A stretch of 64,000 bases of DNA from a virus, in IMG/VR virus record IMGVR_UViG_3300043436_003324. One strand, 5' to 3'. Shown piece by piece: positions 15,890-42,159 of this stretch (positions are counted from its first letter, which is position 1; each line of letters opens with the position of its first letter). A program made the position numbers and the translations under genes. The notes under the pieces are model-generated. The model searched no databases, was not told the origin of the DNA, and saw only the letters and a program-made list of their open reading frames with translations.

Positions 15890-15962
15890 GGTTCCTTAGT
15901 ATAGTTTGGTAATATCCCGGCTTTGTAACCCGGAGTCATCAGTTCGACCCTGATAGGAACCT
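15890..15962 (+). tRNA. tRNA-Thr(UGU)
   Basis: cloverleaf; loop TT-TGT-AA; GTTCGA T-loop; some anticodon-stem mismatches. Confidence 0.8.
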
Positions 15963-16004
15963 CAAACAAAAAGAAAAAGTTCTTTGACATATTGGCTTCA
16001 TAAT

Positions 16005-16076
16005 TCTCCCCTCGTCTAATTGGCAGGACATCTGGTTTTGGGCCAGAGAATCAAGGTTCGAGACCTTGGGGGAGAT
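16005..16076 (+). tRNA. tRNA-Gln(UUG)
   Basis: TCTGG-TTTTGGG-CCAGA anticodon arm. Confidence 0.85.
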
Positions 16077-16080
16077 CAAT

Positions 16081-16166
16081 GGAAGGGTAATCACAACGGC
16101 TTGTGACACCGTCTTGAAAACGGTAGGTACTGAAACATGTATGGGGATCGACACCTCACTCTTCCT
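16081..16166 (+). tRNA. tRNA-Ser(UGA)
   Basis: ACCGT-CTTGAAA-ACGGT; long variable arm. Confidence 0.85.
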
Positions 16167-16175
16167 CTAAAATAA

Positions 16176-16250
16176 CGGGATGTGGACTAATTGGTAAGTC
16201 GCCACTTTTGGGAAGTGGACATCGTCCAGGTTCGAGTCCTGGTATCCCGA
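16176..16250 (+). tRNA. tRNA-Pro(UGG)
   Basis: CGGGA 5' end; CCACT-TTTGGGA-AGTGG. Confidence 0.9.
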
Positions 16251-16265
16251 CTAATAAATAAACAA

Positions 16266-16454
16266 ATGGTAACAAACAAAGAATGTGAGATAATCTCAAT
16301 TAAAGGAAAATTTGAAGGTTTAAATAATTATTACCTAAGTTTATCCAAAATTAGTAAAGACCCAACCTACCGTGGGGATTTAACAGAAGAATTAAAAAGA
16401 GTAGAAACAGAAATAAACCTAAACAATCAAAAACTAATGTCCTATGGAAAGTGA
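16266..16454 (+). CDS. small hypothetical protein
   Basis: likely start ATG 16266 (MVTNKECE...), downstream of tRNA-Pro. Confidence 0.4.
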   Translation: MVTNKECEIISIKGKFEGLNNYYLSLSKISKDPTYRGDLTEELKRVETEINLNNQKLMSYGK

Positions 16455-16472
16455 CAAGTATGACAAACAGAA

Positions 16473-16547
16473 GATCTCGTAGCTCAGTTGGTTTAGAGCA
16501 CTCCACTTTTAATGGAGGGGTCGTGAGTTCGAGCCTCACCGGGATCA
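16473..16547 (+). tRNA. tRNA-Lys(UUU)
   Basis: CTCCA-CTTTTAA-TGGAG. Confidence 0.9.
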
Positions 16548-16590
16548 CAAAAAAATTTGGTAGATTAAAAAAAACCATTAACTTTGTACT

Positions 16591-16806
16591 ATGAATAAAG
16601 TAGAGAAAATTAAAAAAGGACTTCCAAACGGAATGGTTAAGGTTGGGGAAGAATGTGAGAGAGCAATCGTAAGATTGGTTAAACAAGGTAAATCCGAAAA
16701 CGAGGCAACAGAAATTGTTTTGAAACTATTAAAAGATAGTAAACCTTATATTGAACAAGGAATGTACTCTACCACAATTGAAAGTATTAAAATGATAACA
16801 TCATAA
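16591..16806 (+). CDS. small hypothetical protein
   Basis: 71 aa, directly after a TAACTTTG promoter. Confidence 0.5.
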   Translation: MNKVEKIKKGLPNGMVKVGEECERAIVRLVKQGKSENEATEIVLKLLKDSKPYIEQGMYSTTIESIKMITS

Positions 16807-16808
16807 AC

Positions 16809-16882
16809 GCACCTTTAGCTCAGATGGTAGTAGCGGTTGTTTTACATACAACAGGTCACAGGTTCGATCCCTGTAGGGTGTA
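16809..16882 (+). tRNA. tRNA-Val(UAC)
   Basis: GTTGT-TTTACAT-ACAAC. Confidence 0.9.
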
Positions 16883-16886
16883 CAAA

Positions 16887-17006
16887 GGTTGATTGGGGAA
16901 TGATATAACGTTAACGTGTCAGTAGTTCGTAGTTATGTCGGAGTTTTAACTGTCATAGTAACGCCAATCATAAAAGGGGATGTCCACGGAACCATCTTCC
17001 CCTTTC
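16887..17006 (+). ncRNA. unassigned structured RNA
   Basis: TGATTGG/CCAATCA closing stem, then an AAAGGGGA..TCCCCTTT hairpin; GC-richer non-coding stretch between tRNAs. Confidence 0.45.
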
Positions 17007-17013
17007 CTGAATC

Positions 17014-17094
17014 GGGAACTGAAAGTCGTTCGGATACGGCAGCGAAACTGTAAATTTCGTCCTCACGGGAGTGGTTCGAGTCCACCAGGTCCCA
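17014..17094 (+). tRNA. tRNA-Tyr(GUA)
   Basis: CGAAA-CTGTAAA-TTTCG; variable arm. Confidence 0.8.
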
Positions 17095-17102
17095 CAACAA
17101 AT

Positions 17103-17175
17103 GGACAAGTAGCTCAATTGGGAGAGCATCGTACTGTTAATACGAGGGTTGTAGGATCGTACCCTACCTTGTCCG
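17103..17175 (+). tRNA. tRNA-Asn(GUU)
   Basis: TCGTA-CTGTTAA-TACGA. Confidence 0.9.
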
Positions 17176-17181
17176 CAACAA

Positions 17182-17254
17182 GTTCACGTAGCTCAATTGG
17201 TAGAGCGCCGATCTGATACGTCGGAGGTAATGGGATCGTAACCCGTCGTGAACA
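17182..17254 (+). tRNA. tRNA-Ile(GAU)
   Basis: CCGAT-CTGATAC-GTCGG. Confidence 0.9.
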
Positions 17255-17312
17255 CAAAAAGGGGAATAACTTGTGTGGGTGCCTCAACTACTGCAGGAGT
17301 ACCACACTCTAT

Positions 17313-17399
17313 GGAAGATAAACCTTGATGGCGATAGGGTCCGCCTGCTAAGCGAGATGTACCCGTAAGGGGTATTTGGTTCGATTCCAATGTCTTCCT
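17313..17399 (+). tRNA. tRNA-Ser(GCU)
   Basis: CGC-CTGCTAA-GCG; long variable arm. Confidence 0.85.
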
Positions 17400-17403
17400 C
17401 AAC

Positions 17404-17473
17404 TCCCGTATGATCAGGGATCAAAGTTGGCTCATATCCGACTTTAGAGTGGTTCGATACCACTATACGGGAC
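17404..17473 (+). tRNA. tRNA with CAU anticodon (Met or Ile2), shrunken D-loop
   Basis: TCCCGTA/TACGGGA acceptor; TTGG-CTCATAT-CCGA; D-loop of only about 3 nt. Confidence 0.65.
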
Positions 17474-17478
17474 AACAT

Positions 17479-17552
17479 GGTGTTTGTAGCTCAATCGGGA
17501 GAGCGTCGGTTTGTGGAACCGAAGGTAGTGGGATCGAAACCCACCATTCACC
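17479..17552 (+). tRNA. tRNA-His(GUG)
   Basis: TCGGT-TTGTGGA-ACCGA; G-1:C73. Confidence 0.85.
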
Positions 17553-17687
17553 CAAAAGAATTTACAACGGACAAGGCTTAGGCAAGTGAGTTGAGAATGA
17601 GTAGTAGGAGATTTAATCGTTTGGACTACAGAAAGTTTGATACAAGAGATTGGTGGGATGCGAGTGGTTGACCAAAATTCTTTAATT

Positions 17688-17760
17688 GCCCACATAGTTC
17701 AACTGAACAGAATACCCAATTACGGATCGGGAGATAGGAGTTTGAATCTCTTTGAGGGTA
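17688..17760 (+). tRNA. tRNA-Arg(ACG)
   Basis: CCCAA-TTACGGA-TCGGG. Confidence 0.8.
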
Positions 17761-17765
17761 CAACT

Positions 17766-17838
17766 GCCCCCATCGTCCAACTGAACAGGACGTTCCCCTT
17801 CTAAGGGAAAGATCGGAGTTTGAATCTCTGTGGGGGTA
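17766..17838 (+). tRNA. tRNA-Arg(UCU)
   Basis: TTCCC-CTTCTAA-GGGAA. Confidence 0.9.
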
Positions 17839-17845
17839 CAAAACA

Positions 17846-17918
17846 CACATGGTACAGACAAGGTGTCGGTCAGGTCTCCAAAACCTCGACGGGTTAGTTC
17901 GATTCTAACACCATGTGC
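17846..17918 (+). tRNA. tRNA-Trp(CCA)
   Basis: AGGT-CTCCAAA-ACCT. Confidence 0.85.
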
Positions 17919-17963
17919 AAAAATTAATTTTGCCAGTTAAAAAAAATTTTGTATCTTTACAGT

Positions 17964-18458
17964 ATGAAAGACACACTACCATATTGTACTACAGTAAAAG
18001 CAATCAAAGGTTATGAAGAATCCGTAATTGCGAAAAATGAAACCAACGATTGTGTTGTAAGAGCATTTGCATCTTGTTTTGATGTGTCTTACGATTACGC
18101 TCACAAATACGTTAGAGAAAATTTTGGTCGTAGAGATCGTAACGGTACTTATGGTACTGTAGATAAAATGACTAAACTTGCAGAAAATAGAAGTCAAGTA
18201 AACTACAAAAAAGTTAAGTGTGTTGGTAAATTAAACAATTACCGTAGACACACTTTGGAGTACGATGTTAAAGTAAATGGTGAGAGAGTTAAACGTAAAA
18301 TGACTGTGGGTACATTTACAAAACAAAACCCTATTGGGACATTCTTTATGTTGGTTAGCCGTCACGCTTTCACAATCAAAGATGGTGTGGTAATTGGTAA
18401 CCACGAGGATTCAACCAAGAAAAAACGTGTATTACTTCATGCGTTTGAAGTTAAATAA
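17964..18458 (+). CDS. conserved phage protein with NDCVVRA...H motif (possible papain-like fold)
   Basis: start ATG 17964 after a TATCTTTAC promoter variant; Cys...His...Asp pattern. Confidence 0.5.
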   Translation: MKDTLPYCTTVKAIKGYEESVIAKNETNDCVVRAFASCFDVSYDYAHKYVRENFGRRDRNGTYGTVDKMTKLAENRSQVNYKKVKCVGKLNNYRRHTLEYDVKVNGERVKRKMTVGTFTKQNPIGTFFMLVSRHAFTIKDGVVIGNHEDSTKKKRVLLHAFEVK

Positions 18459-18521
18459 GACGGGAGGCGAGAGTTGAGGGTAGAACCGTTAGGATACCTC
18501 AACCAAGTCCTCCCTGAAGAA

Positions 18522-18594
18522 GGACAGGTAGCTCAGTTGGTAGAGCTCAGGATTGAAGATCCTGGAGTCGGGGGTTCGAAACCCTCTCTGTCCA
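18522..18594 (+). tRNA. tRNA-Phe(GAA)
   Basis: CAGGA-TTGAAGA-TCCTG. Confidence 0.9.
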
Positions 18595-18610
18595 CAAATA
18601 AAAAGAAATA

Positions 18611-19066
18611 ATGAACAGAGTATTTAGGACAATTAATGGTGAAGCGATACCTGATGTGGTTAAACACACCTTAGATGTTTTAAAGGAATGTCCTTGGGTT
18701 GAAATACATATCGGTACAGATTCACAAAACCACAGAAGAAGTACCGTATACGTTACGGTAATTGCTTACAGGTATGGTAACAGAGGTGTTCACTACATCC
18801 TTCATAAACAAAAGGTTAAGAAGATTAAAGATAAGTGGACACGTCTTTGGAATGAAGCCGATTATTCAATTGAGGTGGCTGAATGGTTAACTCAAAAAGT
18901 AAAAGTTAAGGTTGAAATAGATTTGGATTATAACTGTGAAGAAAAACACTACAGTTCAAAACTAGTTCCTCCCGTTGTTGGGTGGGCAACGTCGTTAGGT
19001 TATAAATCAAATATTAAACCTGACAATCAAATTGCAACAAGAGCGGCAGATCACCACTGCCGTTAA
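18611..19066 (+). CDS. RNase H-like YkuK family protein
   Basis: IHIGTDSQ...RLWNEADYSIEVA...IDLDYN pattern. Confidence 0.75.
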   Translation: MNRVFRTINGEAIPDVVKHTLDVLKECPWVEIHIGTDSQNHRRSTVYVTVIAYRYGNRGVHYILHKQKVKKIKDKWTRLWNEADYSIEVAEWLTQKVKVKVEIDLDYNCEEKHYSSKLVPPVVGWATSLGYKSNIKPDNQIATRAADHHCR

Positions 19067-19067
19067 T

Positions 19068-19138
19068 GGTCCTGTGTCCGAGTGGTTAGGAGGCGGTCTG
19101 CAAAACCGTTTACGTTGGTTCAAATCCAATCGGGACCT
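19068..19138 (+). tRNA. tRNA-Cys(GCA)
   Basis: GCGGT-CTGCAAA-ACCGT; U73. Confidence 0.9.
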
Positions 19139-19147
19139 CAATAAAAT

Positions 19148-19228
19148 GCCCCTGTGATGGAATGGTAGACATGTCAGATTTAGGGTCTGATGCCGTAAGG
19201 TGTGAGAGTTCGAGTCTCTCCGAGGGTA
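19148..19228 (+). tRNA. tRNA-Leu(UAG)
   Basis: TCAGA-TTTAGGG-TCTGA; variable arm. Confidence 0.9.
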
Positions 19229-19247
19229 CAAACAAAAAAAAGTGAAG

Positions 19248-19490
19248 ATGGAAAAGTTGATGAAAAATAAAGAAGGAGAATACCTATACGTTTTTGATAT
19301 AATTCAAAACGGTAAAGTTGCAGGGTCAAATATTTTGTGGAGTAAGAACTTCATCCAAGTAATGGCGAGTGCAAAAAAAAGATTTGGTAATGTGGATAAT
19401 GAGTCTTTTAAAAGATTAACCAAAGATGAGTACGCAACTATGATCGAGGATCAAAAAACAAAAAAACTTGATAAAAAAAGAAAGTGGTGA
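19248..19490 (+). CDS. small hypothetical protein
   Basis: basic ORF of about 80 aa after tRNA-Leu. Confidence 0.45.
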   Translation: MEKLMKNKEGEYLYVFDIIQNGKVAGSNILWSKNFIQVMASAKKRFGNVDNESFKRLTKDEYATMIEDQKTKKLDKKRKW

Positions 19491-19577
19491 TTTAAATCGT
19501 ATATTGAATATTTATTAATAAAACTTGACACTTTTAAAAAGTATCATATATTTATAACAAAACAAATAAAAACGCAA

Positions 19578-19652
19578 ATGAAAAATTTACATATCATATT
19601 ATTAGGCGGATTGGCGATAGCTGAGGATACTACCTATAAGGAGATGGTATGA
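19578..19652 (+). CDS. putative attenuator leader peptide 2 (24 aa)
   Basis: MKNLHIILLGGLAIAEDTTYKEMV, double stop TGA TAA; GGAGATGG (19640-19647) is complementary to the terminator arm CCATCTCC (19682-19689). Confidence 0.75.
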   Translation: MKNLHIILLGGLAIAEDTTYKEMV

Positions 19653-19676
19653 TAATTTAACACATAATAAATTTTG

Positions 19677-19710
19677 AAAACCCATCTCCAAAAGAGGTGG
19701 GTTTTTTTGT
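19677..19710 (+). terminator. intrinsic terminator (attenuator) before tRNA block 2
   Basis: AAAACCCATCTC-CAAAA-GAGGTGGGTTTT followed by a T run. Confidence 0.85.
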
Positions 19711-19755
19711 TCTTTGAAATTTTGGAAATTAAAAAATAAACAGTATCTTTGTTTT

Positions 19756-20046
19756 ATGATAACATTTGATGATATAGAGTTTAAACCACATGGTATTGGT
19801 AATGGGGTTCACGGATTACTGTTTTTTCCTGGAGGATACGGAATCTCGGTTGTAAGATTTAAATCTCCTTTTGGTGGGGGTGGATCATATACTTCAGATG
19901 ATGATGATTATGAGGTCGCCGTTATTAAAGGAACAAAAGATGATTGGGAAATTTCTTATGACACAAAAATAACTAATGATGTTTTGGGTTATCAAACTAA
20001 AGAGGATATAAATAAATTAATTACTCAAATTTTAAGATACTGTTAA
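19756..20046 (+). CDS. conserved hypothetical phage protein
   Basis: start ATG 19756 after a TATCTTTG promoter; F..GYGISVV...YEVAVI pattern. Confidence 0.55.
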   Translation: MITFDDIEFKPHGIGNGVHGLLFFPGGYGISVVRFKSPFGGGGSYTSDDDDYEVAVIKGTKDDWEISYDTKITNDVLGYQTKEDINKLITQILRYC

Positions 20047-20047
20047 A

Positions 20048-20212
20048 ATGAAAACAAAGGAAAAAAATATCGTACATAAGATGATCTTGGGTAGTCAAAG
20101 AGTTGCTCAAAAAGAACAAGGTTTTTTTGATGGTAGATTTGTTACTAGATCTATGGATTTAAAAAATAATTACACAAGGAAAGAAAAACACAAAAAAAGT
20201 TTGGTAGATTAG
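20048..20212 (+). CDS. 54-aa basic peptide, ArfA-like
   Basis: ...GRFVTRSMDLKNNYTRKEKHKK resembles the ArfA FRQR...SYxRKxKH motif; absent from the ORF track. Confidence 0.4.
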   Translation: MKTKEKNIVHKMILGSQRVAQKEQGFFDGRFVTRSMDLKNNYTRKEKHKKSLVD

Positions 20213-20313
20213 AAAAAACCTTGTATATTTGTAAGACAAACAACGGGGGTAGGAAGTGAGAGGTTGGTGTCCTACTCCCGTGAAGACAGAAGAAGTTCAT
20301 TGAGATAAAAATA

Positions 20314-20398
20314 TAGTGGTTGTAAGAAACGGGAAACTTGTAAAGTACATTAACCTGTTGGCTCAAGATGGTGAAACAAGAGTGTGAGTCAACTACTA
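20314..20398 (+). ncRNA. unassigned structured RNA
   Basis: TAGTGGTTG/CAACTACTA closing stem; follows a promoter, a hairpin and a boxA-like site. Confidence 0.35.
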
Positions 20399-20411
20399 AC
20401 TACATAAATTT

Positions 20412-20484
20412 GTTAGGTGGGCGTAATGAGGGACGGTGCCCGAATCCTATAGGTTGCTTATCCGGTTCGAGTCCGGCCCTGACA
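20412..20484 (+). ncRNA. tRNA-like RNA without a canonical anticodon arm
   Basis: acceptor-like stem and T-arm CCGG-TTCGAGT-CCGG; GAATCC..GGTTGCT core shared with 22463-22545. Confidence 0.55.
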
Positions 20485-20497
20485 AAAAAATTTTAAA

Positions 20498-20621
20498 TAG
20501 GTAAGTGGCGGAATTGGTAGACGCTTAGGTTTATTCCCCGTAAGAAGTCACCGAGATATAGCTGGGGATGTCTCTTGAAAAGGGAACTATATCGTACAGG
20601 TTCGAATCCTGTTTTACCTAC
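20498..20621 (+). ncRNA. Leu-type tRNA-like RNA with about 70 nt between the D- and T-arms
   Basis: TAGGTAA/TTACCTA acceptor, GTGGCGGAATTGGTAGACGC D-arm, ACAGG-TTCGAAT-CCTGT T-arm; no normal anticodon arm. Confidence 0.55.
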
Positions 20622-20703
20622 ATATCGCGGGAGATAAAGTTGATTTCTCTAAAAAAAGTTTGTAGTGATAGGTATTTTTGAGTTTTAATATATATTTATA
20701 TAT

Positions 20704-21297
20704 ATGGAAAAACTTAACAAATATCAGAAAGGGGCACAAACAACAAAGAAAATTTTACAAGAGCGTTCTTTGAAAAATTATTATGATAACCCAAAGATTT
20801 GTAAAAATTGTGGTAAAATAATTGAGGTTAAAGAAAGTGAAAAACCAAGACACGTAAGAAAAAAAACTTTTTGTAATAGTTCTTGTTCTGCGACTTATAA
20901 CAATAAAGTTAGAGAACTGAAAAGAGAAAAAAAAGTAGTTGAAGGTATTAAAAAAGAAAAAAAAGAAAAGTTTGAATTTTTGTTAGATATGACAAAAAAA
21001 GAACTATATGAAAAACACGGAGTTTATTATAAATTTAGGGCTGTAGTTAGAAAACACGCACATTATGTTTTTAATAAACACACAACAAAAAAAGAATGTT
21101 TAATATGTGGATATTCTAATCATGTTGAGGTTTGTCATATAAACTCAGTTTCGTCTTTTGGTGGTGATGAATTAATAAGAAACATAAACTCAATTGATAA
21201 TTTAATCGGTTTATGTCCTAATCATCATTGGGAGTTTGATAACGGAAAAATAGATATATCGCGTGAAGGTGTAATTGGTTGCATGGGACGCTCATAA
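20704..21297 (+). CDS. HNH homing endonuclease with N-terminal Zn-finger
   Basis: CKNCGK...FCNSSC; CLICGY..HVEVCHI...NLIGLCPNHHWEFD; 3' end runs into a tRNA. Confidence 0.85.
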   Translation: MEKLNKYQKGAQTTKKILQERSLKNYYDNPKICKNCGKIIEVKESEKPRHVRKKTFCNSSCSATYNNKVRELKREKKVVEGIKKEKKEKFEFLLDMTKKELYEKHGVYYKFRAVVRKHAHYVFNKHTTKKECLICGYSNHVEVCHINSVSSFGGDELIRNINSIDNLIGLCPNHHWEFDNGKIDISREGVIGCMGRS

Positions 21298-21331
21298 CGT
21301 CTACGGGGTGGTTCAAATCCACGACACGCTA
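21260..21331 (+). tRNA. tRNA-Met(CAU), initiator-like acceptor (C1.U72)
   Basis: GGACG-CTCATAA-CGTCT; CGCG 5' end; lacks the three G-C anticodon-stem pairs of a typical fMet. Confidence 0.7.
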
Positions 21332-21409
21332 CTATAGCAAACCAAGCTTTACTACGATACGGGTAATACCTGTGGGTTAGGGGTGACGGTCAGGAGAGAC
21401 TGACGATTA

Positions 21410-21492
21410 TGCTGACGTACCAGTGGACGCTTATATCGTCTATGACTGTAGTGGTAAGTTTAAAACGTTGGTTCGAATCCAACCGTCAGTAC
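21410..21492 (+). ncRNA. tRNA-like RNA, non-canonical topology
   Basis: 8-bp TGCTGACG/CGTCAGTA stem, GTTGG-TTCGAAT-CCAAC T-arm, nested hairpin GGACG-CTTATAT-CGTCT. Confidence 0.5.
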
Positions 21493-21497
21493 AATAA

Positions 21498-21569
21498 GCG
21501 GGTATCGTATAATGGTTATTACTCCACACTTCCAATGTGGAGATGAGTGTTCGATTCATTCTACCCGCA
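21498..21569 (+). tRNA. tRNA-Gly(UCC)
   Basis: GCGGG 5' end; CCACA-CTTCCAA-TGTGG. Confidence 0.9.
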
Positions 21570-21574
21570 CAAAT

Positions 21575-21647
21575 GGGCCTGATGCCGACGGCAGGTCGAC
21601 TGATTTGCAATCAGATCGTATGGGTTCGATTCCCACAGTGTCCACCA
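21575..21647 (+). tRNA. tRNA-Ala(UGC)
   Basis: CTGA-TTTGCAA-TCAG; G3.U70; encoded CCA. Confidence 0.8.
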
Positions 21648-21878
21648 AATAAACAATTAATACAAATGAATGATGAGAGAAGTTTTATCAGGAACCTCAG
21701 AGTCATCGAAAGTTAAAATGGGTAAAATTAACACGAATACTGACTGGTTGAAGAAACTGAAAAAAACGCTTAATAGAACGAAGTACAAGTTTAGAGTGGG
21801 GAGCGGGTCCCACAAAAAAATTTAAAAAAAGATTTGGTAGATTGAAACAGTTTACATATCTTTGTAATAAAACAAAAT

Positions 21879-21950
21879 GGTCCCATCGACTATCGGTTAG
21901 GTCGCCAGGTTTTCATCCTGGAAAGTCGGGTTCGACTCCCGGTGGGACTA
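21879..21950 (+). tRNA. tRNA-Glu(UUC)
   Basis: CCAGG-TTTTCAT-CCTGG. Confidence 0.9.
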
Positions 21951-22010
21951 CAATGAAATGAACAACATAGCACACAAGTTGTACCTCTACGGTTTTAAAG
22001 TGTGTTTATT

Positions 22011-22086
22011 GGAGATTAGGTCAAATGGTTAAGATGTCGCCCTGTCACGGCGTTCGGAGCGGGTTCGACTCCCGTAATCTCCGCCA
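22011..22086 (+). tRNA. tRNA-Asp(GUC)
   Basis: CGCC-CTGTCAC-GGCG; G73; encoded CCA. Confidence 0.9.
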
Positions 22087-22094
22087 AAAAAAAT

Positions 22095-22181
22095 AGTCAG
22101 GTGGCGGAATTGGATAGACGTAGCCCCATCAGTGGGTAGTGGTGAAAGAAACACATACAGGTTCAAATCCTGTCCTGACTA
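22095..22181 (+). ncRNA. Leu-type tRNA-like RNA with an aberrant anticodon arm
   Basis: AGTCAGG/CCTGACT acceptor, Leu-like D-arm and T-arm; anticodon arm GCCC-CATCAGT-GGGT lacks U33. Confidence 0.55.
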
Positions 22182-22271
22182 CTAAAAAATAAAAATTATG
22201 ACACCAATATTATTTGTATTATTTGTTTTGTTTATCTTTATGGTAAGAAAGAGAAAATAACTCTTTAAAAT

Positions 22272-22358
22272 GCTCGGATGGTGGAATTGGTAGACACGAC
22301 AGGTTTAAGCTCTGTTGACCAGTGGGTTGTGAGGGTTCGAGTCCCTCTTCGAGTACCA
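22272..22358 (+). tRNA. tRNA-Leu(UAA)
   Basis: ACAGG-TTTAAGC-TCTGT; variable arm; encoded CCA. Confidence 0.9.
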
Positions 22359-22366
22359 ACGATAAA

Positions 22367-22453
22367 CTTCAGTACCCGTACCGCCAACGTAGGGTTAAAT
22401 TAGATACAATTTCGTGTTACATTTATGTATGTGCGGGGAGTAGAATGCTGAAG
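22367..22453 (+). ncRNA. unassigned structured RNA
   Basis: CTTCAGTA/TGCTGAAG and CCCGTAC/GTGCGGG stems separated by a GAGTAGAA bulge. Confidence 0.5.
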
Positions 22454-22462
22454 AGTCGGGTT

Positions 22463-22545
22463 TGTCAGGAGTGTAAAGAAGTGTGGTACTGAATCCATCT
22501 GTTAAAGATGGTTGCTCATTGTGGGTTCGAATCCCACCCTGACAT
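22463..22545 (+). ncRNA. tRNA-like RNA, same family as 20412-20484
   Basis: TGTCAGG/CCTGACA, GTGGG-TTCGAAT-CCCAC, GAATCC-hairpin-GGTTGCT core. Confidence 0.55.
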
Positions 22546-22549
22546 CAAA

Positions 22550-22624
22550 GGTCCTATAGCTCAGTTGGTTAGTAGCACTTGACTCATAATCAAGGGGTCG
22601 CAGGTTCGAGTCCTGCTGGGACCA
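22550..22624 (+). tRNA. tRNA-Ile2(CAU, lysidine type) or Met
   Basis: GGTCCT 5' end, CTTGA-CTCATAA-TCAAG, A73; resembles bacterial Ile2. Confidence 0.8.
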
Positions 22625-22694
22625 CAAAAACACTATTTTCTTTTTAAAATAGTATTAATATATTTTTAAAAAAGGGGAGGAATACCCCAAAATT

Positions 22695-22766
22695 GGCTCC
22701 ATAGTTAAATGGATATAACGAATCTCTTCTAAAGATTAGTTCCTAGTTCGATTCTAGGTGGGGCTA
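22695..22766 (+). tRNA. tRNA-Arg(UCU), second copy
   Basis: AATCT-CTTCTAA-AGATT. Confidence 0.85.
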
Positions 22767-22839
22767 CATTTTTTTTAAAAAAATTTTGTACATCTCAGAA
22801 ATTCCCTTATCTTTGTTTAAACCAAAAAACATTAAGGAT

Positions 22840-31631: not shown

Positions 31632-32114
31632 ATGAATATTTTCTTTTTAGATTTTGATACAAAAAAATGCGCTCAATATCATTGTGATAAACACGTTGTC
31701 AAGATGATATTAGAAACCGCACAACTTTTATGTGGGACTCACTGGGTAATTGGAAATGAGGCCCCATATAAATTATCCCACAAAAATCACCCATGTTCAA
31801 TATGGGTTAGAGAGTCCCTCTCAAATTATCTTTATTTATGTGATCTTGGTTTGGAGTTATGTAAAGAATACACTTATCGATATGGTAAAAGACACAAATC
31901 TCAGGATGTAATAGAATGGTGTTTAATAAATAAACCAAATATCCACGATGTTGATTTTACATCCCCACCATTAGCGATGGGTGATGAATTTAAAATAGGA
32001 AACGATGTGATCGAATCATATAGAAATTATTACCGAGAAGGAAAAAAACTTATCGTTAGTTGGAAAAACAGGGTTATTCCAAGTTGGTTTCAACCCGACG
32101 AAGTATTTATATGA
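31632..32114 (+). CDS. pyrimidine-dimer DNA glycosylase / endonuclease V family
   Basis: MNIFFLD...HCDKHVVKMILETAQLL...HKNHPC signature. Confidence 0.8.
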   Translation: MNIFFLDFDTKKCAQYHCDKHVVKMILETAQLLCGTHWVIGNEAPYKLSHKNHPCSIWVRESLSNYLYLCDLGLELCKEYTYRYGKRHKSQDVIEWCLINKPNIHDVDFTSPPLAMGDEFKIGNDVIESYRNYYREGKKLIVSWKNRVIPSWFQPDEVFI

Positions 32115-33649
32115 TAAAATCATATATGAAACATTTTTTATCTGAAGAAATAAGAAGAATAAAAACATTAATGTCAATTAATGAATCAATAGATACTACG
32201 GCACCTAAATTTTCAACTAAAATATTTGATAAAGTGGATCCTACTTGGGGAGGGGGACCTAATTCACATGCCGCAAGACATCCAGACCCAACAGGAAAGG
32301 ATTGGTGGAGTAATAACGCCTACGATATAATGGCACCTGAAGGTACACCTGTTTATTCAATATCCGATGGATATGTTGATAAAATTACAGATAACCCTCC
32401 CGGATTAAAATCTAGTGGAGGTAAAAGAATTTATGGTGACAGTATTACCGTTAGGGGTAGTGGTGGTAATCCTGACGTTTTTTATACCCATATTACAAAT
32501 ATTGTTATTGAGGATGGGGATCCTATTAAAAAAGGTCAATTACTTGCATATATTGTAAAGGGTGAGTTAGGAATTCCTGATCATGCACACGTTTCAGTTA
32601 AAGTTGGTGATGTTAAAGATTTCGTTGACGTAAACGGTAATATTGAGGGTGTGGATAATAGTTTATTAGGTAATTTATCAATCACAACAAGTAAAGGTGA
32701 AGAAACCCCTATTGATACTAAAACAATAATGGGTACGGCAGCCGGATTAACCGCAGCCGCTCTAAGTTCTTTAGATATTAAAAGACCTGAATCAGATATA
32801 AGTGGTATTGCTTCAAGATTTGGTATTACAGACGTTGATGTTAATACTGATTCCGTATCTGGCGTCTTAAATAAAATAATACTATCTTCAGAAGGTCTCG
32901 GTACCGATGAAACTTCAATACATGATGCAATTAAAAAATTAAGTAGTTGTTATGAACTTGATGAACTAAATAAAATGGTTGAAAGAAAGGAAATTGATGG
33001 GAGAAAATATAAAGACGTATTTGATTACATTAATAGTGAAATGAATTATGGAGATGAACTATTTGTTAAAAGTTTAGTTAAAACAATAAATAATATTTGC
33101 CCAAATACTGTAACAGATAAAGGGAACCAAATTTTACGTGTTAATAAAAGTATTTACGTAGGTGGAGGAATTGATAAAGTAGTTCCAATAAAACTTCTTA
33201 ATGATTTAAAATCTTATGGTCTTTCAGATAATGCAGCCAAAGGAGTTGTTGCAAACGCTTTTGGTGAAAGTGTTTTTAACGTTAAGGCTAAAGGGGATTC
33301 AGGAAGTTACGGGGAAAGTTCAAATAGATCAATAAACATTGATGGTAAAAAATACTGTTCTTTTGGTTTATGGCAATATAATATTTGTGGTGGAATGGGA
33401 GTTTCATTCTTGAAGAACTATAACGTAAATGTTGATACTTCTTCAGATGAAGAAAAATTAAGAATTTTATTTGATTATAATAAACAAGTTGAGTTTATGT
33501 CAAAAAGAATAAAAGAAGAACAAATTAACAGTGAGAAGGACGTAAGAACTTGGATAGATTGGATTGTTGATAATGTTGAGAGACCTTCAGATAGGACTTC
33601 CGCAAAAATAAAAAGGCAAGAATTTGCAAAACAACAAGGATGGTCTTAA
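32111..33649 (+). CDS. M23 peptidase + annexin-like repeat + phage-tail lysozyme fusion
   Basis: YDIMAPEGTPVYS..YTHI..HAH (M23); EGLGTDETSIHDAI (annexin-like); AAKGVVANAFGES..FGLWQY (tail lysozyme). Confidence 0.7.
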   Translation: MIKSYMKHFLSEEIRRIKTLMSINESIDTTAPKFSTKIFDKVDPTWGGGPNSHAARHPDPTGKDWWSNNAYDIMAPEGTPVYSISDGYVDKITDNPPGLKSSGGKRIYGDSITVRGSGGNPDVFYTHITNIVIEDGDPIKKGQLLAYIVKGELGIPDHAHVSVKVGDVKDFVDVNGNIEGVDNSLLGNLSITTSKGEETPIDTKTIMGTAAGLTAAALSSLDIKRPESDISGIASRFGITDVDVNTDSVSGVLNKIILSSEGLGTDETSIHDAIKKLSSCYELDELNKMVERKEIDGRKYKDVFDYINSEMNYGDELFVKSLVKTINNICPNTVTDKGNQILRVNKSIYVGGGIDKVVPIKLLNDLKSYGLSDNAAKGVVANAFGESVFNVKAKGDSGSYGESSNRSINIDGKKYCSFGLWQYNICGGMGVSFLKNYNVNVDTSSDEEKLRILFDYNKQVEFMSKRIKEEQINSEKDVRTWIDWIVDNVERPSDRTSAKIKRQEFAKQQGWS

Positions 33650-33720
33650 TTTTTTTAATGACTTTGTTGACTGTTTAAAATATATGGTTTATAATTGTTG
33701 TATATTTAAAAACAAGAAAA

Positions 33721-33870
33721 ATGACAGAATTAGAAACACAAGTAATCGAGATCGAACTTTTTAGTTACCTTAACGATAAAGGTCAAAGACTTTTTACTCC
33801 AAATTTTGAATTTGCCGATGTTATGGCAAGAAAATACGGTACGTTTAAAGTTTACGTAGAAAAATATTAA
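33721..33870 (+). CDS. small hypothetical protein (49 aa)
   Basis: MTELETQVIEIELFSYLNDKG...; not in the ORF track. Confidence 0.45.
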   Translation: MTELETQVIEIELFSYLNDKGQRLFTPNFEFADVMARKYGTFKVYVEKY

Positions 33871-33884
33871 AAAAAGTTCACAAA

Positions 33885-34042
33885 GTACTTGACAAAACAA
33901 AACAAATGTCGTAACTTTGTAAAACAAATTTGGAAAACGTCCAAATAAGAAATAAAAAAAGTTTAGAAAAAATTTGGAAAATTCAAAAAGTATTCTTATC
34001 TTTGTAAAACAAATCGGAAAAGTCCGATAACGTTCTTTGAAA
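33885..34042 (+). promoter_or_regulatory. tandem host-type promoters plus hairpin plus boxA-like element
   Basis: TAACTTTG (33912) and TATCTTTG (33997), each followed by TAAAACAAAT; TCGGA-AAAG-TCCGA; GTTCTTTGAAA (34032). Confidence 0.65.
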
Positions 34043-34044
34043 AG

Positions 34045-34918
34045 TTAGATATTATCCGTTCAGGATTAAGTTAAGAACCTTCGGGTTTAAGAATGAAACT
34101 GATAAAGATATTGGGCCGTGTATAGTCCATAAAATAAACTACGAAAGTAGGATAAAGTGAACCCCCAAGTGTAACGGGTTTGCGTCTTAATGGTCTTCGG
34201 ATCATTGAGGTCGAGTACACAGGCGAGATACCATAAAATCTTTAGTACCGAGGCCAACGGTGTAGGGAAAGTGATTTTATGATGAGGTGATGTGGGTCAT
34301 CTTGTTGAGGAGGGAACTCTAATAGGAATAACTCGTAGGGATGATGCAAGAATCAATATTTCCAATGTTGTTATTGCGGGTCTCAGTACGATAGGGTACT
34401 TAAAACCGAAAGGTATGACAACAAACAGGTGGTGCTGACATTGTCCTTGATGAATCTCTACCAAGGGACTTATCTCGAAGTAATCTTGAAATATTGAAAT
34501 GGGGACATTTCACGAGGCAGTTTGGTATTTTGTTATTCAAAAGATAATGAAGCTTAAGACGGACCACTGCTTTGACCAATCCACGACACAAAAACTTTTA
34601 TGTTAATGAAGTAACATTTATAAACTATAAAGCAAAAGTGTCCGTCACGATATAACGGAAGTTACCCACCTATTCACTGGCAGTCAGTGGAACGTGATAA
34701 CCGCAAGTTTGACCGTATTTTTATGAAAAATCTCTAGGTCGTCGAAGACCGAATCAGGACGCAATCTTGAGGAGACAGGATTAGTAAGAGAGTAGTTATG
34801 TCGTCAAGGAGTGATTGGTCTAACCAATCGGTAATGAGTGTTACAGGACAAAATCCTGTGGATAAGAGTAGAACCAATAATGACTCGAAAGACACTTACA
34901 AAAACTGTAATCTCAGGT
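34045..34918 (+). ncRNA. large ornate structured RNA (GOLLD-like)
   Basis: about 870 nt with no credible ORF, GC-enriched, many UUCG/GNRA-capped hairpins, own promoters and terminator; ends approximate. Confidence 0.7.
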
Positions 34919-34956
34919 TTTTATTTTTAGGTTAAATCTTATAAGAAAAAAATTAA

Positions 34957-34988
34957 TAGGGACGATGTGAATCGATCCCTTTTTTTTT
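34957..34988 (+). terminator. intrinsic terminator closing the large ncRNA unit
   Basis: AGGGACGAT-GTGA-ATCGATCCCT followed by a T run. Confidence 0.75.
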
Positions 34989-35045
34989 GTTTTTTTTTAT
35001 ATACTGATGTATTTATATTTAAAGATAAATAAATAATTTTACATT

Positions 35046-35543
35046 ATGAAAAGAATAATTAGACTAACAGAATCAGATCTTGCAAGAATAGTAAGAAGAG
35101 TAATTAGTGAAGGATTTGCTGAAAATACTGTTTTAGCGTTTGATTCGGTAACTGGATATAAAAGTGCATTGTTCCCGCAATTACAATATAAAAAAAATGG
35201 AACGGCATGGGACGTAAATTTTGCGGGTAGTAAAACTTTAGGAAATTTAATGAATATGAGAGATGGGAGTTTTCAAGTAGTTAACACAGAGTCCGATCCA
35301 ACAAGTTTAGATCAAAGGACGGCATTTGGTGTTTTCCTTAATACAACCCCTAAAACAAGAGCTGAGGTAGAAACTGCGGTTAAGGCCGTGGTCCAAGGAG
35401 GATATAAAGACCCGTTCACAATCAAGGCCGGTGGTAAAACTAAAAACGCAAAAGGTGTATTAGTTACTTGGGGTCGACCTGGATTTACGGCTGGAAGCGA
35501 AATGACTGATGCAATTTGTAAATTGTATAACGTTACCGCATAA
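35046..35543 (+). CDS. hypothetical protein with LTESDL N-terminal motif
   Basis: MKRIIRLTESDLARIVRRVISE. Confidence 0.6.
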   Translation: MKRIIRLTESDLARIVRRVISEGFAENTVLAFDSVTGYKSALFPQLQYKKNGTAWDVNFAGSKTLGNLMNMRDGSFQVVNTESDPTSLDQRTAFGVFLNTTPKTRAEVETAVKAVVQGGYKDPFTIKAGGKTKNAKGVLVTWGRPGFTAGSEMTDAICKLYNVTA

Positions 35544-36107: not shown

Positions 36108-36518
36108 TGGTGGAGGTGCGGAGGCTCGAACTCCGGTCCATAATATCCTGTCAAACAAGGACTACACGTTTAGGTTAACATTTTCTAACGTTCCAAAATA
36201 TTCGATTTTTAACTTGATCAAAAACAAGGTTAGTTTGTTCTTCATTATCGTAAACTAACAACCAATAAACGACTCGATTTCGGGTTCAGTCGTATTCCAC
36301 CTTAAAGGACTTCTGTTGCTAGGTTATGTGTCCACCGACCCCCGTTTCCGTTAACTAATTAAGCTACAGTAACTTCAGAACCTCTTAGTAAACCAAGAGT
36401 TTCCATTTTCGATAAAACGTCGCCGATTGTTTTTGTGAATCAGTTTTTAAAGAGATTAATTCAGTCTCTACGTGCCCTTTATTCTCAGCCAATACCTGTC
36501 AAATCCAAAAACACCCCC
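36108..36518 (-). ncRNA. ssrA: tmRNA
   Basis: 5' GGGGGTG...GATTTGACAG, G3.U70, 3' GTTCGAGCCTCCGCACCTCCACCA; internal tag ORF (A)GDVLSKMETLGLLRGSEVTVA. Confidence 0.92.
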
Positions 36519-40095: not shown

Positions 40096-42159
40096 TTATT
40101 CTCCCTTTTTCTTTCTACCTTTTTTCTTTGGTTCTGGTTTTGACCTATCCTCAATTTCTATTGTTTGATCATCACCTTCTCCTTTAACAAATAACATATA
40201 TTCGCCCCCTTCTATAACCTCATTGTTTAATATCTTTTCTGAAATTAAATCTTCGATTTTATCTTGGATTGCTCTTTTAATTGGTCTTGCTCCGTATTGA
40301 TCATCAAAACCAACTTTTGATATAAAATCAGTCACAGAACCTTCATAAGAAACGTTATATTTCATAGATGTTAATCTGTCAATTAGTTTATCAATTTCAA
40401 GTTTTACAATTTTATCAATATGTTCTTTTACTAAAGAATTAAATATTACAACATCATCAATTCTATTTAAAAATTCAGGTGCAAAAAATTTGCGTAATTC
40501 TTTTTTCAATACGTCTCTTTTATACTCCTCTTGGACAACTTCACTATTATTATTTGTTTTAAATCCAACACCATTACCAAAGTCCTGTAATTTTCTAACA
40601 CCAATATTTGATGTCATAATAATTAAACAGTTTTTAAAGTTGATCTTTCTACCTAACCCATCAGTTAAATGACCATCATCTAACATCTGTAGTAAAGTTG
40701 CGAATATGTCTTTATTCGCCTTCTCAATCTCATCAAAAAGTATAACAGAATATGGTTTATTTTTAACTTGTTCTGTTAATTGACCCCCTTCTTCATGTCC
40801 CACATATCCTGGAGGGGATCCAATAAGTCTTGAGATGGTATGTTTCTCTTGGTACTCAGACATGTCAACTCTTATTAAACTATCTTCACTACCAAATATT
40901 TCTTTTGCTAATTTTTTTGCTAAAAACGTCTTACCAACACCTGTTGATCCTAAAAATATAAACGAACCGATTGGTCTATTAGGGTCTTTAATCCCAACTC
41001 TATTTCTTCTTATAGATTTTGATATTTTTCCAACCGCCTCTTCTTGACCAATAACGTATTTATTTAAAGTTAATTCAAGATTAACTAATGAATTTTTCTC
41101 ATCTACATTTATTTTACTAACAGGAATTTTAGTCATGTTTGAAACTACCTCATAAATGATTTCATCAGGAATACCTCGTTTACTATTTTTAAGATGATCC
41201 TCAAATTTCTTTTTCTCCTCTTCTAATTTAATTAAAACGTTTCTTTCTCTATCTCTTAATTCGGCCGCTTGTTCGTAGTTTTGTTTTTTAATAACGGTCG
41301 CCTTCTCTTTCTTTATTTCTTGGGCCTCAACTTTTAATAACTCAATTTCTTCAGGTAATTTTATATCTATTTGCATTCTTGACCCAACCTCATCTAAAAT
41401 ATCAAAAGCCTTATCAGGAAACTCTCTATCCGTAATATATCTATCGGCCAACTCAACACATAACCGAAGTGATTCATCGGTATAATTAACCTTATGATGT
41501 TCTTCATATTTACCCTTACTTTGTTGTAGTATTTGAAACGTTTCTTCTTTGGTTGATGGATCCACAATAATCTTTTGGAATCTTCTTTCTAATGCTCCAT
41601 CTTTCTCAAAATGTCTTCTATACTCATCAAGGGTTGTTGCTCCAATACACTGAATTTCACCTCTTGATAACGCAGGTTTAAATATGTTTGATGCGTCTAA
41701 AGAACCTGAACTATTACCCGCACCAACCATAGTATGAATTTCATCTATAAATAAAATAATATTAGGGGTGTTCTGAAGTTCTTCAATAATCACCTTCATT
41801 CTTTCTTCAAATTGACCTCTATACTTTGTGCCGGCAACAATTGAGTTAATGTCTAAAGACACAATTCTTTTATCTACCAAATTTTTTGGGCACTCTCCAC
41901 CATAAATCATCATTGCAAGACCCTCGACGATTGCAGTTTTACCTGCTCCTGGTTCACCAATAATAATAGGGTTATTTTTTTTCCTCCTTGATAAAACTTG
42001 GGCAATTCTAAAGATTTCTTTTTCTCTACCAATTACTGGGTCTAATTTACCTTGTTCGGCAAGTTTTATTAGATCTTTACTAAAATTATCTAATACAGGT
42101 GTTCCGGCCTCACTCTTTTTTTTATTTTTATCATTACTATCGTCTACAAAATCTAACAT
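40096..42159 (-). CDS. clpC: ClpC-like AAA+ chaperone lacking the N-domain
   Basis: GEPGAGKT and GSTGVGKT Walker A motifs, FIDEIH, LFDEIEK, UVR middle domain, GVGF ClpP-docking-like loop, GARPIKR. Confidence 0.85.
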   Translation of the reverse strand: MLDFVDDSNDKNKKKSEAGTPVLDNFSKDLIKLAEQGKLDPVIGREKEIFRIAQVLSRRKKNNPIIIGEPGAGKTAIVEGLAMMIYGGECPKNLVDKRIVSLDINSIVAGTKYRGQFEERMKVIIEELQNTPNIILFIDEIHTMVGAGNSSGSLDASNIFKPALSRGEIQCIGATTLDEYRRHFEKDGALERRFQKIIVDPSTKEETFQILQQSKGKYEEHHKVNYTDESLRLCVELADRYITDREFPDKAFDILDEVGSRMQIDIKLPEEIELLKVEAQEIKKEKATVIKKQNYEQAAELRDRERNVLIKLEEEKKKFEDHLKNSKRGIPDEIIYEVVSNMTKIPVSKINVDEKNSLVNLELTLNKYVIGQEEAVGKISKSIRRNRVGIKDPNRPIGSFIFLGSTGVGKTFLAKKLAKEIFGSEDSLIRVDMSEYQEKHTISRLIGSPPGYVGHEEGGQLTEQVKNKPYSVILFDEIEKANKDIFATLLQMLDDGHLTDGLGRKINFKNCLIIMTSNIGVRKLQDFGNGVGFKTNNNSEVVQEEYKRDVLKKELRKFFAPEFLNRIDDVVIFNSLVKEHIDKIVKLEIDKLIDRLTSMKYNVSYEGSVTDFISKVGFDDQYGARPIKRAIQDKIEDLISEKILNNEVIEGGEYMLFVKGEGDDQTIEIEDRSKPEPKKKGRKKKGE

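Follow-up and report, generated by a model that had tools for sequence, protein, structure and literature searches.

The DNA that we analysed, a stretch of 64,000 nucleotides from IMG/VR virus record IMGVR_UViG_3300043436_003324 (the window), very probably carries at 33885-34988 a GOLLD RNA gene that belongs to a large phage of a Bacteroidota host. The RNA is a member of this known class and not of a new one. As the class is already known, the main result is a correct annotation, namely that of a GOLLD gene in a phage with a Bacteroidota host. A modest new observation, made by sequence comparison, is that the gene has an apparently rRNA-like leader, which seems to be confined to the GOLLD subgroup of Bacteroidota phages.

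Class membership of the RNA

A search of the whole window against Rfam 15 returned a match to RF02032 (GOLLD) at 34513-34919 on the + strand. It scored 287 bits (E 1e-82), where the gathering cut-off is 150, and covered model positions 1-416 of 416, that is, the model from end to end. When 33700-35100 was scanned permissively, with E values up to 1 accepted, GOLLD was the sole family returned and no match to the ROOL, RNase P or intron models appeared. A preliminary description of this DNA, made from its letters alone, had left the choice between a GOLLD-type RNA and a new class, and had proposed scanning for these very families. With GOLLD alone matched, and matched so strongly, the first alternative holds and the new class falls away.

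RF02032 covers the conserved 3' half of GOLLD only and does not judge the 5' half, so we examined the latter separately, against env-38, a GOLLD RNA of solved structure. The initial 154 nt of its construct align with the window from about 34114, and hairpins and the invariant GGAUAAAGUG block are common to both. This alignment indicates that the window RNA has the same kind of 5' domain as the solved 14-mer cage. Could the RNA belong to a new ornate class that merely resembles GOLLD, or be a ROOL-type RNA? Such a reading can draw on the position of the 5' half beyond the reach of the Rfam model, but it has to face a 3' half whose score over the full model comes close to double the gathering threshold, a 5' half that aligns to env-38, and a ROOL model unmatched at E values up to 1. 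We regard it as exceedingly improbable.

The core, from about 34114 to 34919, is 806 nt long, above the size of about 800 nt expected of GOLLD, and the unit that runs from the proximal promoter as far as the terminator measures about 980 nt. The first estimate, about 870 nt, fits these values. The GC content is 0.37-0.43 over 34000-34900 versus 0.22-0.30 in the flanks, as expected from the GC enrichment described earlier, and the earlier remark that no credible ORF is present was borne out as well. A protein-coding reading was rejected because ORFs on neither strand exceed 63 aa. Searching a phage DNA database gave two weak partial matches only, one to LR745206.1 (5' half) and one to a Streptococcus phage (3' half).

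Structure of the two domains and comparison with known giant RNAs

The capped hairpins that had been listed for the stretch are all present in their places. They comprise CUUCGG at 34078-34085 and 34195-34200, GAAA loops at 34143-34146 and 34408-34411, and GCAA at 34703-34706 and 34761-34764, together with the pairs TTCACTGG/TCAGTGGAA (34674-34692), GATTGG/CCAATC (34814-34829) and CAGGA/TCCTG (34846-34860).

Relatives were gathered by using one conserved 3'-domain hairpin as an exact pattern, which yielded at least 84 IMG/VR contigs and 21 Streptococcus genomes. Comparing both window halves with these loci by blastn gave about 35 distinct full-length relatives, whose 5' halves are 65-99% identical to that of the window. 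We aligned 34 full-length relatives from viral metagenome contigs (alignment A1; A2 is its trimmed version). The RNAalifold consensus of these 34 relatives contains 192 pairs, and compensatory double changes were found in 136 of them. As controls, pairing partners in A2 were slid by 1-3 columns, and 200 shuffles were made. In the 5' domain (34114-34512, +, delimited by its alignment with the env-38 5' end), 97.1% of the cells of 98 pairs are paired and 69 pairs show double changes, compared with 16-25 when partners were slid and with a maximum of 54 in the 200 shuffles. The conserved 3' domain (34513-34919, +, the RF02032 match) has 92 pairs with 98.7% of cells paired and double changes in 67, against 19-27 with slid partners and a maximum of 48 among the shuffles. 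This covariation analysis, which the preliminary description had called for, strongly supports both halves of GOLLD, which are clearly structured RNA under selection, and it excludes an artefactual Rfam match.

The env-38 RNA is a marine metagenome GOLLD that forms, by cryo-EM, a 14-mer cage with D7 symmetry; its caps consist of 5' domains, its ring consists of 3' domains, and the linker, which is disordered, points inwards (PMC12286853; the construct sequence is in Supplementary Table 4). The window RNA resembles it in having a full-length 3' domain, a homologous 5' domain, an A/U-rich linker between them (about 34572-34640, +, within the 3' part), a length above 800 nt, and a phage context with tRNA genes. 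In the hairpin loop at 34737-34750, most relatives have CG as the central dinucleotide and five have GC; in this switch the loop resembles the self-complementary kissing loop L21a described for GOLLD in that paper, to which it was mapped by description only. In contrast to the solved construct, the window gene has a leader of about 105 nt (a hairpin, a boxA-like motif and a variable hairpin); it also differs from env-38 in lying 11 kb from a tRNA array and not inside one, and in having tandem promoters. With both domains, the A/U-rich linker and the L21a-like loop present, the same kind of cage would be expected here, an expectation extrapolated from the homologue.

Two further kinds of giant RNA were compared. 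GOLLD RNAs of Lactobacillales prophages (Streptococcus, Lactobacillus) have the same 3' domain, with an identical anchor hairpin, GGAGTGNTTGGNCTAACCAANCG. They differ from the window RNA in that their 5' halves are unmatched to its 5' half by blastn, and their loci have a GC content of 0.38-0.43 and lack a Bacteroidota promoter or boxA-like motif upstream. According to a review, other stoichiometries occur for the 3' domain of a Streptococcus GOLLD (PMC12990946). ROOL is likewise a large ornate phage-associated RNA that makes an RNA-only cage, but it has no sequence or structure match to the window RNA with the Rfam ROOL model at E values up to 1.

A short complementarity was noticed between the linker and the 3' domain, namely AUCCAC (34579-34584) and GUGGAU (34858-34863). 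ATCCAC occurs in 33 of the 34 relatives; in the remaining one, L002, the segment is ATCTAC, and the pair persists there as a G-U wobble. All 34 have GTGGA, and the next letter is T or A (A1 and A2). The two segments might form a long-range or intermolecular pairing.

Transcription unit and leader

Bacteroidota promoters follow a consensus of TTG at -33 and TAnnTTTG at -7, as described for Bacteroides and Flavobacterium. Two matches to it were located by regular expression on the + strand before the core. The distal promoter, P1, occupies 33889-33919 (TTG at 33889-33891, -7 box TAACTTTG at 33912-33919), and the proximal one, P2, which has an upstream A-tract, occupies 33974-34004 (TTG at 33974-33976, -7 box TATCTTTG at 33997-34004). 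Both are inside a 69-nt direct repeat (33868-33936 and 33953-34021), the copies of which are 71% identical and start 85 nt apart. Each promoter is followed by TAAAACAAAT and then a small hairpin, that after P1 (33928-33946, +; -5.8 kcal/mol, z -3.8) being a paralogue of that after P2. Taken alone, the promoter pattern is not highly specific in AT-rich DNA, with about 5 chance matches per strand in the window by rough estimate rather than computation. P2 is kept in 32 of the 34 aligned homologues; P1 is found in a subset of homologues only, and a few relatives show three promoter matches. The module formed by P2, the hairpin and the boxA-like motif is kept whether a small ORF or a tRNA gene adjoins it upstream. 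As the module stays with GOLLD despite differing neighbours, the promoter appears to belong to GOLLD.

At the other end of the unit, an intrinsic terminator is predicted at 34959-34988 on the + strand, with a stem at 34959-34979 (-11.9 kcal/mol, z -2.9) and a run of nine U at 34980-34988. Most relatives have a hairpin of other sequence and a T-run in its place. These data support an independent unit, in which GOLLD is framed by two host-type promoters and the predicted terminator.

For a comparison with rRNA leaders, we sampled Bacteroidota-type 16S genes in metagenome loci (L108-L227), recognised by a signature of 29 nt from the 5' end of Bacteroidota 16S, and took the 600 nt upstream, which gave 102 distinct regions. 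The TTG...TAnnTTTG pattern is present in 96 of these. The consensus matches, the conservation of P2 and the likeness to Bacteroidota 16S leaders together sustain the two tandem host promoters of the preliminary description, and the stem with its U-run, matched by a hairpin and T-run in most relatives, does the same for the downstream terminator.

Just upstream of the promoters, an ORF of 49 aa occupies 33721-33870 (+); it has no family match, and recognisable counterparts occupy the corresponding position in relatives L010, L011, L026, L079, L027 and L081. On another reading, the RNA would lack promoters of its own and would be the untranslated end of a longer transcript begun before this ORF. 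A search between the ORF and P1 found no terminator, and a sigma-70-like TTGACT/TATAAT site is present at 33667-33695, both of which suit a longer transcript. That reading is nevertheless improbable, given that the P2 module keeps with GOLLD when a tRNA gene replaces the ORF upstream, and that P1 and P2 fit the host-phylum consensus found before nearly all of the sampled 16S genes. An independent unit is thus the preferred reading.

Within this unit, the -7 box of P2 ends at 34004 and is followed on the + strand by a leader hairpin in a boxB-like position, ATCGGAAAAGTCCGAT (34013-34028; -6.8 kcal/mol), and by the boxA-like motif CGTTCTTTGAAA (34031-34042). Over roughly its initial 35 nt, the predicted transcript consists of a small hairpin and then CGUUCUUUGAAA. 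The hairpin covaries, with compensatory changes from G-C to A-U and from A-U to G-C across homologues. By contrast with its surroundings, which have diverged by up to 35%, CGTTCTTTGAAA is near-invariant in the 34 relatives, and RNAalifold predicted no pairing partner for it within the RNA. A variable leader extension (34044-34113, +) comes next, with a UUCG-capped hairpin at about 34071-34093 and a conserved ATTATCC; its length and sequence vary among homologues while its hairpin covaries, and it lies outside the solved env-38 construct.

We surveyed the upstream regions of 60 distinct IMG/VR GOLLD loci with enough sequence. GTTCTT[T/A][G/A]A was found at -737 to -799 from the anchor in 36 of them, all with a GC content of 0.29-0.38, and the motif or a close variant is thus present in every one of the 36 low-GC loci, in most of which a promoter match precedes it by about 55 nt. 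The other 24 loci, with a GC content of 0.38-0.43, showed neither the boxA-like motif nor a promoter match. Likewise, strict and relaxed patterns found the motif in none of 41 distinct high-GC Lactobacillales-type loci, Streptococcus genomes included, indicating that the leader is not a family-wide trait of GOLLD. Since the env-38 construct assembles without the leader and the leader is not general, it would concern the making of the RNA and not the role of the RNA.

The rRNA leaders of the phylum contain the same motif. The exact 9-mer GTTCTTTGA occurs in 51 of the 102 sampled 16S leaders (55 in relaxed form) and is absent from about half of them. Its distance to the 16S anchor downstream is 78-293 nt, and a -7 box usually precedes it by 40-70 nt; it typically follows tandem TAnnTTTG promoters and often a hairpin, so that promoter, hairpin and motif come in the order seen at GOLLD. 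Only 7 copies were counted in the remaining 837,058 bases (both strands); at that rate the leaders should contain about 0.5 copies, versus the 51 observed, an enrichment of roughly 100-fold over background. In E. coli, boxA is UGCUCUUUAACA, and the rrn leader of B. subtilis has a small 5' hairpin directly followed by AUGAUCUUUGAAA, which binds NusB (PMC13753749, 2026). The boxA-like motif has the core CUUUGAAA in common with the B. subtilis element, and the motif shares its core with E. coli boxA as well. In its layout and its core motif, the GOLLD leader thus repeats the rRNA leaders of the host phylum, and the rRNA-operon-like layout and upstream boxA-like site that had been proposed for this locus are in keeping with these results. 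We consider GUUCUUUGA a candidate boxA of Bacteroidota rRNA operons. In the literature searched, we found no statement of GUUCUUUGA as a Bacteroidota boxA and no link between GOLLD and boxA or antitermination; searching by the leader sequence string gave primer coincidences only.

Like the boxA-containing rrn leaders of E. coli and B. subtilis, the GOLLD leader combines tandem promoters, a small 5' hairpin and then a U-rich boxA. Unlike them, it drives a phage RNA, is followed by no second boxA before a downstream gene, and has a factor binding that is predicted only.

Seven copies of GTTCTTTGA occur in the window versus 1.1 expected, all on the + strand, and three of them (15979, 19709 and 34032) are in non-coding RNA contexts. 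Besides the GOLLD leader, these are the spacer between tRNA-Thr and tRNA-Gln (15979-15987, +) and a site between a terminator, which it adjoins, and a promoter match that begins shortly after it at 19722 (19709-19717, +). Judged by sequence context, the other copies apparently lie within coding sequence. We do not claim boxA as a general mark of the tRNA array of the window, as few of the seven sites are in RNA contexts. Where a tRNA gene (Met, Pro) adjoins GOLLD upstream in relatives, it has a Bacteroidota-type promoter to itself and, after that, the boxA-like GTTCTTTGA or GTTCTTAAA (L055:1217-1312, L019:1287-1396, L065:2746-2946 and L071:39-238), indicating that the leader module serves phage tRNA genes too. 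Separately, in the ROOL alignment of the PMC12286853 supplement, several rows from human gut metagenomes start with UGUUCUUUGAUAUGAAAAUG, which puts a boxA-like string at the 5' boundary of a second giant RNA of phages, and some ROOL rows there start with UGUUCUUUGA.

Might GTTCTTTGAAA be something other than a loading site for Nus factors, for instance a processing signal by which the leader is trimmed, a piece of the initially transcribed region with a tuning effect on promoter escape, or half of a helix closing the 5' end of GOLLD? Near-invariant adjacent segments, ATTATCC and a GATAAT-like one, could make such a closing helix; the leader is outside the cage-forming construct, as would be expected of a processed segment; and the 9-mer, found inside coding sequence in the window too, is not exclusive to RNA leaders. 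The boxA reading, for its part, rests on sequence comparison. Against these points stand the position of the 9-mer, in promoter-hairpin-motif order and strongly enriched, in half of the sampled Bacteroidota 16S leaders, the core in common with the NusB-binding element of B. subtilis, and the RNAalifold consensus, which left GTTCTTTGAAA unpaired. We therefore think a role unrelated to Nus factors possible but rather unlikely, and keep to the boxA reading.

Phage context and proposed role

The genes around GOLLD are those of a phage. Upstream are a gene for an M23 peptidase/tail lysozyme (32060-33649) and a DenV-like gene (31632-32114), whose product has its best cultured-phage match in a Chryseobacterium phage. 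The window contains 22 tRNA genes at 15890-22767, and a phage location near tRNA genes fits GOLLD; in relatives, tRNA genes are found directly upstream of it. A tmRNA gene is present at 36108-36518 on the - strand (Rfam, 105 bits over the full model; not called by ARAGORN). Its 5' end is preceded, at a distance of about 28 nt, by a promoter of Bacteroidota type (TTG...TATATTTG), but by no boxA-like motif.

Three tRNA genes or matches were noted in addition. The tRNA at 22095-22182 (+, 88 nt) has the anticodon UCA, which reads UGA, and is labelled SeC by ARAGORN; a suppressor function is conceivable, although long ORFs in the window are open under table 11. A tRNA-Ile(UAU) at 21399-21492 (+, 94 nt) and an Rfam tRNA match at 20499-20620 (+, 122 nt; not called by ARAGORN) are unusually long and may contain insertions or introns.

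Among the records searched, those closest to the window are an IMG/VR fragment of 36 kb, whose rating as 12% complete implies a genome size of some hundreds of kb, and uncultured phages of 634 and 642 kb. The genome is jumbo-phage-like. About 5 kb downstream of GOLLD, a 687-aa protein (40096-42159, -) shows 58% identity to genes of the 634- and 642-kb phages and about 50% to those of many others. One of these two, LR745206.1, has its homologue at 423341-425251, about 2 kb away from a GOLLD gene of its own, and the gene order may therefore be conserved. From the promoter and leader motifs, together with weak protein similarities, we infer Bacteroidota as the host phylum.

The synthesis of the RNA can be pictured as follows. 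Host RNA polymerase would start at P1 or P2, and the nascent boxA would recruit NusB-S10 and other Nus factors, by analogy with the rrn operons of E. coli and B. subtilis. The leader, on this analogy, would load NusB-S10 and build an elongation complex that would render transcription of the long untranslated RNA Rho-resistant and aid its folding during synthesis. The leader may be trimmed off afterwards, and the core of about 800 nt would self-assemble into an RNA-only cage like the env-38 14-mer, with the A/U-rich linker inside.

Expression is a trait of the GOLLD class, whose levels rise during phage lysis. As our best guess, weakly held, GOLLD may have a role in the takeover of translation by the phage, as hinted at by the 22 tRNAs, the tmRNA and published ribosome pull-downs. 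Suggested cargo or partners of GOLLD include tRNAs and ribosomes (PMC12286853).

Cumulatively, we put forward, with belief and doubt in equal measure, the following: Bacteroidota phages copied the complete rRNA leader of their hosts (tandem promoters, 5' hairpin and boxA) onto GOLLD and onto neighbouring tRNA genes, and thereby borrowed the Nus antitermination and RNA-chaperone complex for a folded, untranslated RNA of 0.8 kb made under active Rho. Should this hold, boxA leaders would be the mark of one route by which phages make giant RNAs, and the 'lake-derived' subgroup of GOLLD would be assigned to Bacteroidota hosts. The presence of Bacteroidota promoters and of the leader in the env-38 subgroup suggests a host phylum for many GOLLD phages that are uncultured, and it offers a concrete hypothesis, open to testing, on the safe transcription of a non-coding RNA of this length.
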